This document shows positions 32,305-62,766 of a DNA stretch of 64,000 nucleotides, piece after piece. The stretch's first letter is position 1. Each line of letters opens with the position of its first letter. The stretch is from an uncultured Elusimicrobia bacterium (GTDB taxonomy: Bacteria > Elusimicrobiota > Elusimicrobia > 2-01-FULL-59-12): positions 384,001 to 448,000 of the forward strand of contig OY969767.1 of the NCBI GenBank assembly GCA_963702895.1, read 5' to 3'. The notes beneath the pieces were generated by a model. The model made no database searches, was not told the origin of the DNA, and worked only from the letters and a program-made list of their open reading frames with translations. The position numbers and the translations under genes were made by a program.

Positions 32305-32651
32305 GGCTTGAGTCATCCGGCTCGAATGTAGCGCGCCTTGCGTTCCAGAGTAAAACGGTATCACCTATAGAATGAATTTTTGTTTTCGCAACGGTAGTGC
32401 GTTTTTTTGACTATGAGCCGGGAAAGTTCGGTTGACTGTGGTTGATCGACTGAGACATCGGGACTTTTTAGTGCCGTCATCCCCCACGGTCGTAAGTGGG
32501 GGATCTATCATATTTTTATGTCGATGATAGACCCCCGCTTACGATCCGCGGGGGTGACGTCAACAGAGCGTAATATGAAAGCGGGCCTCAAGAGAGTTAT
32601 AAACAAGGCTGTCGGTAAAGACACCTTAATAACCCCAGGAGGCCCAAAATC

Positions 32652-33695
32652 ATGATATCCATCGGCATTGATCATCACAAGAAGTATTGTCAGGTTGTGG
32701 CTATGAGGGAGTCTGGCGAGATTGTATGGGAAGGTCAAGTCCCCACACGGCGAGAAGGTCTTGCACAAGTTAAAGAGGCGATTCCTCCAGGAGAACCGGT
32801 GCAAAGTGTATTGGAATCTGGACGGAGCTGGGGCATTGCCTATGACATTCTGGAAGATCTCGGGATGAATCCGGTGTTGGCCAATCCGTACAAAACTCGG
32901 TTGATCGCGGATTCGTACATCAAGACGGACAAGATTGATGCGACGGCACAGGCGGTGTTGTTGCGATTAGGGATGACGCCGATGATTCACGTTCCCGCGC
33001 GTGACCGACGAGAGCAGAAGTCGTTATTGCGACATCGATTGTGGTTGGTCAAAAGCCAAACGCTGATCAAGAATCGGATTCATGATTTACTGGACCGGCT
33101 GCATGTGGACGTGCCCAAGCGCAGCGATCTGTTTGGGGCTCATGGGAGGGCGTGGCTGAAGGAGTTGATTCTTCCCGAGATGCATCAACACCTGCTCAAG
33201 TCGCATATGGCCTTGTTGGATGAGGTTCGGCTTCAGGTCCGAGCAACCGAAGAGTGGATTGATCGTGTCTTAAGCGAACACCCCTTACGAGAGCTTGTCG
33301 ATTCTTTTCCTGGGGTAGGCAAGATCTTGAGCGCCCTGATGTCGCTGGAAATTGACCAGATCGAGCGATTTCCGTCGGCTTCGCGCTTTGCGTCTTACTG
33401 TGGGTTGGTGTGTAGCACGTATAGCTCAGGCGGTAAAACGTACCACGGGGGATTGATCCCGTCCTGCAATCGATACCTGCGCTATGCGTTTATTGAGGCA
33501 TCGTGGACGGCTGTTCAGGTGTCTCCCTATTTTCGATCGTTCTATCAGCGTTTGAAGACACGGAAGACCGCCTCAGTCGCGATTGTGGCGGTGGCGCGAA
33601 AGATGGCAGAGATTATGTGGGTGTGCTTAAAGAACAAGCGGAAGTACCAAGAGAAAGTGTATCGATTTGGTCGAGTCGCCTTGTCGAAATCTTAA
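32652..33695 (+). CDS. IS110-family DEDD recombinase
   Basis: IGIDHH, VLESG, KTDKIDA, PGVG, YSSGGK; AGGAGG RBS. Confidence 0.95.
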   Translation: MISIGIDHHKKYCQVVAMRESGEIVWEGQVPTRREGLAQVKEAIPPGEPVQSVLESGRSWGIAYDILEDLGMNPVLANPYKTRLIADSYIKTDKIDATAQAVLLRLGMTPMIHVPARDRREQKSLLRHRLWLVKSQTLIKNRIHDLLDRLHVDVPKRSDLFGAHGRAWLKELILPEMHQHLLKSHMALLDEVRLQVRATEEWIDRVLSEHPLRELVDSFPGVGKILSALMSLEIDQIERFPSASRFASYCGLVCSTYSSGGKTYHGGLIPSCNRYLRYAFIEASWTAVQVSPYFRSFYQRLKTRKTASVAIVAVARKMAEIMWVCLKNKRKYQEKVYRFGRVALSKS

Positions 33696-33835
33696 CGGGC
33701 GGTTGCGTTTAAACTGAGCGTAAGGGACTCGACCTCGAACTATTACAGTGTCCAGACGATGTGGACGAAGAAAAGTGTGAGTTCAGCTTAACGACAAACG
33801 TCGGGGCGAACACCGAGGACGCTTACCACACTTTA
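33669..33835 (+). ncRNA. Predicted seek/bridge RNA of the IS1111-type element
   Basis: Stem GGTCGAGTC/GACTCGACC encloses GAAATCTT and AACTGA (target matches); stem AAGTGTG/CACACTT encloses TTCAG and ACGCTT (junction matches). Confidence 0.7.
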
Positions 33836-34086
33836 AAAGGCCTTCAAAGAAAGAAGGCAAAGAGGGAGCTTTGTTTCTGGCAGAAATTACTTGCGCCCGC
33901 TTTCAGAAAAAGATTCCCGGTTAGTGGCCCAGCTCGAAGGTCATGTTCCTGTCACCTAGCGACCTACCAAAGTGCCTGCACTTTGGAGCCTACGTCCGGG
34001 GATTGTCCCTTCCTTTGATTCAAAAGGTAGGGGACACAGACGGCCGTGGGGGATGACGGCTGGGCGAATTATCACACGATTCGTCC

Positions 34087-40500: not shown

Positions 40501-40702
40501 CTAACCGGAAATCTTCGGTTCATTTTTCCTCATTGTCTGAACTCGATGCACTTTTTTGTGCCGTCACCCCGGCGAAAGCCGGCCCTCCAGACGCCCGGCG
40601 GGCCGGGTCGCCGGACTTGTGGAGACCCGGGGTCCAGTTCAACGACGATGGACTGGATCCCGGTTTTCACCGGGATGACGACAACTGCAGATTCCCGGCT
40701 AA
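40501..40702 (+). mobile_element. REP-carrying MITE, intact, with CTAA duplication
   Basis: CTAA-CCGGAAATCT...AGATTCCCGG-CTAA; near-identical inverted copy at 56094-56295. Confidence 0.85.
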
Positions 40703-55086: not shown

Positions 55087-55296
55087 CCGGAATTCCCCAG
55101 TTCGTCACCCCGGCGGATTGTTAGCCGGGGTCTATCATCGACGTAAGAGCATTGATGGATCCCGGGTCTCCACAAGACCGGCGACCCGGCCCGCCGGAAG
55201 TTTGGAGGGCCGGCTTACGACATGCCGGGATGACGGCACAAAAAAGTTCACCTCTGGCAGACGATAGATCGAGTGTGACTGAAGATTTCCGGTTAG
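55083..55296. mobile_element. REP-carrying MITE with TTAG duplication
   Basis: TTAG-CCGGAATT...AGATTTCCGG-TTAG; the left TTAG contains the radical SAM stop codon. Confidence 0.82.
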
Positions 55297-56093: not shown

Positions 56094-56295
56094 CTAGACG
56101 GGAATCTGCAGTTGTCGTCATCCCGGTGAAAACCGGGATCCAGTCCATCGTCGTTGAACTGGACCCCGGGTCTCCACAAGTCCGGCGACCCGGCCCGCCG
56201 GGCGTCTGGAGGGCCGGCTTTCGCCGGGGTGACGGCACAAAAAAGTGCATCGAGTTCAGACGATGAGGCAAAATGAACCGAAGATTTCCGGTTAG
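56094..56295 (-). mobile_element. REP-carrying MITE (inverted copy of 40501-40702)
   Basis: Near-identical over about 200 bp; flanks CTAG/TTAG. Confidence 0.85.
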
Positions 56296-61067: not shown

Positions 61068-61381
61068 AGAGTTTGGAGAACCATCCCCCGAGGATCCTGG
61101 AGTAACTCCTCATGTCCGACGATCATCGCTTGGCCCACTTCGAATACCCCCATGGAACATTGGCTGTCGCTTGCAGCCTATGGAAGGTTAACGTGCCTTA
61201 ACACCTGCGGCAACTTAAATCGGCCTCAAATCGAGACAGATCATCAATATCTATTGATATTTGAATGAGTTTTGTGAGGGGCTCAGGAAGGCCATTGCCC
61301 TCCGAGAGGAAAATCAAGCCAGGAAGTACCGGACTAACCGGGAAACTGCAGTTGCCGTCACCCCGATTTCTATGACCTCGG

Positions 61382-62407
61382 TCAAGCATTTTTTAGGATC
61401 CGAGGATTGACTGACCTATAGTCAGCAAGATACGGTGACTTTGTGCGCAGTACGGCACAGATAATGCGCAAGAGTTTGTTGGCAATGTTGTTGAGCGCCA
61501 AGCGTTTGGCTTTTCCGGCTTGTACTTTTCTTTCAAAGTAGTGCCTGAACTGCTGATGATGTGTGCGAAGGGATCGGGCTGCCAGGTGCAATAGCTTGCG
61601 GATGATGTCCGGACCGATCCCGCGAGAGCTTGCATTCTTGCGCACGGAAGTTCCGCTGGAGTGTTCGAGTGGGCACATGCCCAAATACGAGGCGATGCGG
61701 CGGGGTTCCAGGGATCGCGTAAAGCCTTGGCTGATGACCATCAAATGGGCCGTCAAGAGTCGGCCCACCCCAGGGATGGTGAGCAGCAAGCTCACCATGG
61801 GGCCAATGGTGGGGTGGTTTGAGATCAGTTGATCCAAGGCCTGATCGATTTTTTTGATCTGTTCTTTGAGATGGCGGATGGTGTCCAGGAAGCTTTGTTC
61901 GGCGAGGATCGTGCGAACGACTTTCCGGCTGATGGCCGACAAGGCATTTTGATTGGCGGTCATCTGGCCGGTCAGCTGCTCGCGCGTCGTCAGAAGAACA
62001 CGGACTTGTTCGATCAAGGCTTCCGAGGGTTTCCAGAACGCGAGTTGATCGAAAAAGCGCCAGGCATATTCGGCGAGCTGGCGGCTATCGATGGGGTCGC
62101 TTTTGGCTCCCAGGGGGTGAAAGGCGCGTTTGGTTTTATGCGGCGCCTCCACCGACACCGGATAGCCTTTGGCACAGAGCCAGTAGCAGAGCTGCTCCGC
62201 ATAAACACCGGTGGCTTCCATGCAGACCACGGTATTGGTGGAATCGACTCCGCGTTTCTTAAACCAGGCTTCGAATTCCTCAAAGCCGGCGGGTGTATTG
62301 GCGAGCGTCTGATGTTTGGAATACTTTTGTTCGGCTGAGCTGTAATGTGTTGCGCTGAAGGTTTGATCGGCGATATCAACGCCTATGTAATGGAGAGGTG
62401 GGTTCAT
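61382..62407 (-). CDS. IS110-family DEDD recombinase
   Basis: YIGVDIA, CMEATG, KSDPIDS, IPGVG, HSSGTS; AAGGAG RBS before ATG 62407. Confidence 0.95.
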   Translation of the reverse strand: MNPPLHYIGVDIADQTFSATHYSSAEQKYSKHQTLANTPAGFEEFEAWFKKRGVDSTNTVVCMEATGVYAEQLCYWLCAKGYPVSVEAPHKTKRAFHPLGAKSDPIDSRQLAEYAWRFFDQLAFWKPSEALIEQVRVLLTTREQLTGQMTANQNALSAISRKVVRTILAEQSFLDTIRHLKEQIKKIDQALDQLISNHPTIGPMVSLLLTIPGVGRLLTAHLMVISQGFTRSLEPRRIASYLGMCPLEHSSGTSVRKNASSRGIGPDIIRKLLHLAARSLRTHHQQFRHYFERKVQAGKAKRLALNNIANKLLRIICAVLRTKSPYLADYRSVNPRILKNA

Positions 62408-62424
62408 AAGGCTCCTTTTTGTAA

Positions 62425-62598
62425 GTGCCGACATTCGTGATGCGAGCTTTGCCTATTAAGGGTTTTTATGACATCACTTCTATCTAGCTTTGGATCACGA
62501 AAGAATGGGGTCTTTACCGGGGTATGGTTTTCACCTTGGCGAAAGTTAGACTTATTCCATTCTTGTCGGTGTCTTCTTCTAGAGTCTACAAAGACTCG
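62425..62598 (-). ncRNA. Predicted bridge RNA
   Basis: 5' hairpin, then a target loop with CTTTCGCC and ACCCCGG and a donor loop with ATAGAAGT and TAATAGG, closed by CCGACA/TGTCGG. Confidence 0.85.
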
Positions 62599-62766
62599 AG
62601 AAAAGTCTAATAGGCGAAAGCCGGCCCTCCAGACGCCCGGCGGGCCGGGTCGCCGGACTTGTGGAGACCCGGGGTCCAGTTCAACGACGATGGACTGGAT
62701 CCCGGTTTTCACCGGGATGACGACAACTGCAGATTCCGGGCTAACGGTGTAAGGAAGTGGTCTTGA

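Follow-up and report, generated by a model that had tools for sequence, protein, structure and literature searches.

RNA-guided recombination by elements of the IS110 family is a mechanism already published (2024), and the sharing of one repeat between such elements likewise has precedent. As far as the accessible text of these articles goes, Siddiquee et al. 2024 (PMC11187229) described downstream guide RNAs and their guide order, repeats of 11-13 bp, targeting of REP sequences and natural reprogramming, and Durrant et al. 2024 (PMC11208160) placed the bridge RNAs of IS1111 elements in the right end, with predicted donor guides often found in a multi-loop. Handshake rules were given by Hiraizumi et al. 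2024 (PMC11208158) and in a 2026 article (PMC13626964), also in their accessible parts; for IS621, handshake pairing was described, a donor-loop dinucleotide that matches the donor was reported to block strand exchange, and TT cores were found functional (PMC11208158). Terminal extensions in the IS1111 group measure 7 and 3 bp or, in some cases, 6 and 3.

IS4321 and IS5075, members of the IS1111 group, reportedly insert into the terminal inverted repeats of another transposon, an observation said to go back to Partridge and Hall in 2003. Their target is the repeat of the Tn21 family, whereas the element studied here uses a non-autonomous MITE, of which one genome contains about 170 ends. In Pseudomonas putida, two IS110-family elements, ISPpu9 and ISPpu10, which are 57.8% similar, share a REP/BIME family and the same site (PMC12288879, accessible text); in our case, by comparison, three different sites are used by three lineages that share about 25% identity, and a fourth by an intron. 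A clade of IS1111 elements, the IS1111-attC group, and group II introns of the IIC-attC type likewise meet at a single repeated site, attC (PMC3001079). This is an integron site, and the accessible text of that article does not describe the two elements as splitting in parallel according to the target allele. Our literature search, in which subscription journals were mostly missing and which was judged by titles, the openings of abstracts and the accessible text cited here, returned no report of MITE ends being occupied by IS110 elements or of a covarying handshake in IS1111 elements, including in the accessible part of a 2026 review (PMC13604230); the supplements of PMC11208160 may cover the clade.

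We analyzed a window of 64,000 nucleotides, the whole stretch of DNA considered here, in which an initial annotation had recognized an IS1111-type element. This assignment was borne out by 11-bp sub-terminal repeats, a downstream non-coding region and the guide order. The element, here named variant A, comprises 1343 bp (32567..33909, plus strand) and is intact. Boundaries at 32568-33910 are equivalent because of one shared A, and the flanks of the five genome copies favor 32567-33909; excision of 32568-33910 yields, letter for letter, the empty MITE end that the annotation had quoted. The recombinase gene (32652..33695, plus strand) encodes an IS110-family protein of 347 aa with matches to PF01548, PF02371 and NF033542 (234 bits, cut-off 140). 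As in other members of the family, a DEDD RuvC-like domain is combined with a C-terminal domain carrying a conserved serine, and the residues D7, E55, D93, D96 and S258 are present and recur in 90% or more of the proteins in an alignment of 43. The IS621 protein is only distantly similar (E 5e-9, C-terminal half).

The left (32576..32586, plus strand) and right (33895..33905, plus strand) sub-terminal inverted repeats are perfect, with 100% identity over 11 bp, and fall within the range of 11-13 bp of the IS1111 group. The left end measures 85 nt and the right end 214 nt, which corresponds to the long downstream non-coding region of this group. The terminal extensions amount to 8 and 3 by our own count and sum to 10 in 13/21 homologues, figures that depend both on the predicted junction and on the chosen repeat start. 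The guide order is also that of IS1111: GAAATCTT, a top-strand complement, precedes AAACTG-AG, a bottom-strand match, and the order is the same in all parsed homologues. According to the accessible text of PMC11187229, ISEc11, ISPa11 and ISKpn4 share with this element the 11-13 bp repeats, the long downstream non-coding region, the guide order, insertion without duplication, a junction promoter (here predicted), a repeat as target (REP for ISPa11) and reprogramming among relatives. Between the repeats, the extension measures 11 nt here versus 10 in that group, and the target here is a MITE terminus. Unlike in the three described elements, the second loop covaries with the element ends, a feature for which the accessible text of PMC11187229 holds no description.

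Five copies were found in the genome, an identical pair of variant A and an identical trio of variant B, whose recombinase shares 88% aa identity with that of variant A. All five sit in the terminal inverted repeat of one MITE family without target duplication, and excision restores the terminus of empty twins, in keeping with the site-specific, duplication-free insertion of IS110 elements at one motif. The element was present in 5/393 genomes searched of the host's class, this genome counted. A protein tree was built from the collected homologues only. From these sequence features, the element is a real, intact and probably recently active member of the known IS1111-type kind. We infer, with a probability of roughly 0.85 and, as for the whole mechanism, from sequence, that it is an active IS1111-type bridge recombinase element in which loop 1 would guide to the MITE terminus and loop 2 to the element's own joined ends.

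The host MITE with its 4-nt flanks is split by the insertion (32414..33924) and measures 160 nt in the rebuilt empty form, in which both termini are called; the flanks, TGAG and TTAG, differ in one base. Its free left terminal inverted repeat is of the GAAC type (32418..32433, minus strand, profile score 23), and inverted-repeat analysis revealed a REP-like palindrome in its interior (32472..32562), of a module class that is entered elsewhere by another IS110 lineage, here named C. The left part of the target site, AACAG (32562..32566, plus strand), was delimited by flank comparison, and the right part (33910..33920, plus strand) is the remainder of the MITE terminal repeat in the rebuilt empty form. 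The three empty versions listed in the annotation, at 55278, 56276 and in reverse at 40508, all exist in the sequence; by sequence and profile call they are termini of the GAAG type (55277..55296 and 56276..56295, plus strand; 40501..40520, minus strand).

Using a profile derived from empty sites, we counted 175 MITE ends with a score of at least 14 in the genome, four occupied ones included, versus 17 in a shuffled genome. These ends make up 0.3% of the genome, and the commonest types at a score of at least 18 are GAAG (55), GAAC (30) and GCAG (30). Short left-right pairs (n = 53) have a median length of 161 nt, as expected of short, non-coding, multi-copy MITEs, and their interiors are pieced together from REP-like palindromes. 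In 35/53 pairs, the two 4-nt flanks are the same (mostly YTAR), compared to 10.9 with partners shuffled (maximum 22), which agrees with the target-site duplication of a MITE. The exact terminus pattern occurs 39 times in this genome and is present in only 3/400 other genomes of the phylum that were searched; by the same exact pattern, the family was not found in 9/10 genomes of the same taxonomic family. Three tandem left ends with a spacing of 105 nt were observed at G000:C1 1380369-1380732, in the coordinates of the host genome.

A search of this genome among PF13546, PF13701, PF01609 and PF01797 gave no parent transposase with the MITE ends. PF13546 had no match and PF01797 one weak piece. 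The PF13701 element (seven copies with 7-bp duplications, at G000:C1 508580, 826810 and five more positions) and the PF01609 element (seven copies, at G000:C1 980810 and six more) have ends that differ from those of the MITE. Two long terminus pairs considered as parents were rejected, with group II introns found inside them. The terminal motif also occurs with another interior in three other genomes of the class (L083:193, L085:821, L087:147 (G343); L080, L082), which is a lead to the parent of the MITE; by eye, the five terminus matches in these three relatives showed no obvious transposase frame.

The predicted guide RNA is compact, with two loops in about 125 nt, and overlaps the recombinase stop codon. 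Homologues were collected from metagenomes and relatives, and 57 of 79 loci passed the thresholds (40% identity, 150 aa, plus strand). A parser anchored on AG resolved the RNA in 33 of these 57 loci and failed on 24, and removal of one duplicate of variant B left 32 distinct loci. Five minus-strand loci were skipped, namely two own copies and three others that were viewed by eye (one truncated). A scan of genome contigs yielded distant relatives only, which parsed poorly and were left out of scoring. Permutation tests comprised 10,000 shuffles each over homologous loci, in none of which the observed value was reached; scores of the 5' guides are the best of two or four registers, likewise in the shuffles.

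The target-binding loop of the predicted bridge/seek RNA (33669..33734, plus strand) was delimited by folding and homologue alignment. Its outer stem pairs 33669-33683 with 33721-33734, and its inner hairpin lies at about 33693-33710. This stem had already been proposed and proved real, at least 9/12 consensus pairs being kept in nearly all of the 32 homologues, with compensatory changes at seven of the 12. Support for the RNA structure comes from the homologue alignment and not from the single-sequence fold, which was no better than shuffles (z -1.16); a search of Rfam with the guide RNA gave no match with an E value of 1 or below. As noted before, the RNA begins within the last codons of the recombinase, with the 5' guide ending at the stop codon, and the 5' target guide lies within the ORF in 18/32 homologues. 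At 33684-33695, this guide is translated as the final residues of the recombinase, so that retargeting alters the C terminus.

The 5' target guide GAAATCTT (33686..33693, plus strand) is complementary to the right flank, and the 3' target guide AAACTG is followed by the core guide AG (33711..33718, plus strand; AACTGC and AG in variant B), as supported by the copies and by covariation. The annotation had read GAAATCTT and AACTGA (33712-33717) in the first stem as target guides and had counted two mismatches between the occupied site and the guide 13-mer; both statements were confirmed. Covariation of loop and target among homologues, which it had named as a check, held for the target loop. The 5' guide matched the reverse complement of the right flank with a score of 5.29/6 versus 2.56 in shuffles (maximum 3.54; 24 of 32 loci scored), and the 3' guide matched the left flank with 4.76/6 versus 1.67 (maximum 2.66; 29 loci scored), i.e., far above chance expectation. 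Kinship does not explain this covariation, since the flanks vary freely among close relatives. As in IS621, the target loop carries two guides that covary with the target. A perfect guide site was not found in the genome for variant A or B, and the 3' guide of variant A matches 4/6 bases at both copies.

The donor loop was located between 33741 and 33777, with the same layout as the first loop, i.e., a guide, a conserved hairpin and a guide. The 5' donor guide TATTAC (33741..33746, plus strand) is reverse-complementary to the left end of the element, the inner hairpin (33749..33767, plus strand) shows compensatory changes, and the 3' donor guide AGAAA is followed by the core guide AG and the dinucleotide TG (33769..33777, plus strand). 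An exact match of the 3' donor guide to the element's right end was observed in 28/31 loci, covering four sequence types (null 9.9, maximum 19; looser end rule). The three misses are mis-called ends; our own two rows, mis-called by the looser rule, were counted as misses, and locus L026, also with a mis-called right end, was kept in the counts. In a strict test, the score was 4.96/5 versus 4.18 in shuffles (24 loci). The 5' donor guide gave a weak signal of 3.93/6 versus 3.12 (29 loci) that lay above all shuffles. Two donor guides covary with the ends, as in IS621, among homologues that are non-independent kin, and the donor-side tests overstate because of this relatedness. Donor guide types and handshake states change at several separate places of the tree, the ATAAA type in two, and two loci outside the permutation test agree by eye, L016 completely and L015 for three of the four features.

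A dinucleotide CG in the target loop (33719..33720, plus strand) corresponds to the first two bases of the element past the core and is assigned as the handshake; its counterpart is the donor core AG with the two bases CG (32567..32570, plus strand), recognized by covariation. Among 29 loci, the bases of loop 1 past the core guide equal the element bases after AG at both positions in 26 and at the first position in all 29, with a score of 1.90/2 versus 1.20 in shuffles and with the states AT, CG, GT and T-starting covered. An extended handshake of five bases, CGTAA, was rejected, as covariation was confined to two bases and TAA is part of the outer stem.

The RNA resembles that of IS621 in its two loops with two guides each around an inner hairpin, in the CT core and in the target-loop handshake that matches the donor (PMC11208158, accessible text). 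It differs in lying in the right end, with opposite strand. A further difference concerns the donor-loop dinucleotide (33776-33777 and its homologues), which equals the element's own end in 19/29 loci and the target in 2/21. The RNA is predicted to work like that of IS621 but is not assigned to the same type, since this dinucleotide matches the donor rather than the target. In form, the donor loop resembles a simple internal loop, whereas many IS1111 elements are said to use a multi-loop (PMC11208160, accessible text).

Variants A and B join at different positions. The three joins of variant B, whose 3' guide is AACTGC-AG, read AACTGC|AG and lie in GCAG-type ends. The two copies of variant A, whose 3' guide is AAACTG-AG, are joined to GAAG-type ends at a position shifted by one base; the evidence on variant A comes from these two copies. 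In the shifted register, MITE ends account for 16/35 sites of the A guide (at most two mismatches) versus 0/51 in the unshifted register; for the B guide, they account for 46/92 sites (at most two mismatches). Both 5' guide registers are common in the family (11/24 and 12/24). The junction pair of variant A, AG on the left and AA on the right, recurs in homologue L043, whose guide ends in TT. The two variants are identical over their first 321 nt (32567-32887) and then differ by 17-36% per 100 nt, a pattern that suggests recombination between variants.

By analogy with IS621 and ISEc11, the element would excise as a circle, and the circle junction would form a promoter with a -35 box from the right end and a -10 box from the left end, 17 nt apart. 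The contigs of one DNA sequencing run, in which this genome had a small share, contained no circle joint, a result that carries no weight on circle formation or expression. Predicted boxes are TTGCGC (33891..33896, plus strand) and TAATAT (32571..32576, plus strand), with the spacing of 17 nt counted across a four-A junction; a predicted promoter of this form (TTG-hexamer, 17 nt, TA..T) appears in 14/21 rebuilt homologue junctions, a count that has no chance control. The guide RNA would bind the recombinase, a tetramer would exchange strands around the 2-nt core (CT on the element's minus strand, AG as read), and the handshake bases CG would draw the donor strand into loop 1. Variant B would use the standard core at GCAG-type ends. 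For variant A, the 3' guide would be slipped by one base and the 5' guide read one base further, with TT as the target core; the slip and the TT core would result in joins one base away at GAAG-type ends.

The donor side may be explained differently, as loop 1 might suffice while the protein reads the sub-terminal repeats and the donor-loop matches represent a vestige or a processing signal. An RNA of 70-100 nt with target matches only sufficed for ISEc11 (PMC11187229, accessible text), loop 1 measures about 66 nt, and both the weak 5' donor guide and the donor-loop dinucleotide in the IS621-blocking arrangement fit this explanation. The 3' donor guide, however, follows the element end through four sequence types, with ATAAA arising twice on the tree, and the donor hairpin has kept its pairing by compensatory changes where a vestige would be expected to drift; we consider a vestigial donor loop unlikely. 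Another candidate for the donor guides had been put forward in the initial annotation, namely TTCAG (33782) and ACGCTT (33819). These letters are present and match the junction, a stem is predicted there in the single-sequence fold, and ACGCT occurs downstream in variant B as well, but they are not conserved. Variant B has TACAG despite identical element ends, the stem is lost in variant B and in other homologues, and the order is opposite to that in loop 1. TTCA stands at this place in only 2/33 parsed rows, the ACGCT-type match to the left end is confined to variants A and B (2/29 distinct loci with a left end), and nearly all homologues lack the matches. In the alignment, viewed by eye, a small terminal hairpin (33778..33790, plus strand) has TTCAG as its variable loop, and a working donor loop made of these two segments is hardly credible.

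On the target side, the position of the variant A joins would require no register slip if the right end carried five A's and an ordinary AG core were used at a site one base shorter. AG is indeed found in both junctions of both A copies, the A guides read straight spell the shorter site, and three A's in homologue L023 show that the run length can vary. Such a site is missing from the MITEs, however: no MITE end is without the base in question, the two loose matches lie outside MITEs, and the near-identical empty twins of both A sites carry the base. Moreover, the promoter spacer would become 18 nt instead of 17, and the junction pair of variant A is shared by L043. We judge a five-A donor improbable, and the comparison of A and B favors the four-A junction of the initial annotation. 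The nature of the repeat can be questioned as well, since its palindromic interiors and the lack of a transposase with its ends in this genome would also suit a REP/BIME-like host repeat, with the elements seeking hairpin structure over sequence. Against this stand the terminal inverted repeats with identical flanks at a frequency above all shuffles, the absence by exact pattern from most genomes of the same family, as from a recent burst, and guides that match by sequence and are split by end type. A host repeat of this kind seems quite improbable, and we retain a mobile MITE as the target.

According to the initial annotation, two unrelated recombinases exploit one repeat at non-overlapping sites. 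The sharing stood, and the two IS110 elements in the window do use non-overlapping sites, with footprints about 6 nt apart. The number was too low, as three IS110 lineages and a group II intron were found, and "unrelated" does not apply: both recombinases belong to the IS110 family and are 26% identical over 158 aa (E 3e-10). In the genome, 13 PF02371 matches fall into three lineages, whose proteins are distant relatives with pairwise identities of 23-26%. Lineage C has five copies and enters the internal MITE hairpin. Its copy in the window (61365..62614, minus strand), with a 5' guide RNA, occupies the internal hairpin of a MITE that belongs to the family targeted by variants A and B; the guide footprint of the lineage is about 6 nt from that of variants A and B, copy C5 adjoins an intact terminus, and the repeat hairpins that contain copies C3 and C4 have degenerate ends. 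Guides of the window copy were observed in its 5' end at 62545, 62523, 62483 and 62458, with CG, not CT, as the target core. Lineage D has three copies, near G000:C1 131032, 180379 and 1126299, with a protein of 330 aa and a CT core, and targets a hairpin subfamily, CCCTCACCC, that is bounded by the same MITE termini. Both C and D have readable guides in their 5' ends, and the RNA of D has target and donor guides.

The group II intron occurs at G000:C1 229533-231414, 463116-464998 and 1961796-1963678 (plus strand), with an RT frame of 451 aa and a match to RF00029 on copy 1. All three copies (3/3) are located in the same MITE terminus, 2 nt from the join of variant B and in opposite orientation, copy 1 in a GCAG end and the other two in GAAG ends. 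Between the two intron variants, a segment of 6 nt and one further base change in step with the exon ends and, as we infer from this pattern, behave as EBS1 and EBS3 would. Over the three IS110 lineages and the intron, 14/16 insertions have a called MITE end within 400 nt, compared to 3.6% of random positions; for the five copies of variants A and B and the three introns, the counted end is the insertion site itself.

The MITE may be a safe, self-renewing landing pad, which we propose as the reason for its use by the two other IS110 lineages and the group II intron. Our wider proposal is tentative and, in our estimation, falls short of even odds: one MITE would serve four RNA-guided lineages as a shared, self-renewing pad, the guide variants of the IS1111-type element and of the intron would track GCAG and GAAG ends within three bases, as guides chasing a diversifying target, and the IS1111-type clade would possess a full donor loop with a donor-side handshake opposite to that of IS621.

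Features that go beyond a routine case are the covariation of donor loop and handshake within a clade of IS1111 type, the slip by one base that separates sibling variants, and the use of one MITE by four RNA-guided lineages. The clade would offer a clean natural test set for a known mechanism. Two papers from 2024 disagree on whether IS1111 RNAs read the donor, and covariation of donor loop and handshake across about 30 homologues indicates the exact bases to mutate. The comparison of A and B points to retargeting through a one-base slip and not by substitution; it would define the cut position relative to the guide, which matters for the programming of such enzymes. With several RNA-guided elements crowded onto a single MITE, this case suggests that small repeats may shape the ecology of mobile DNA.
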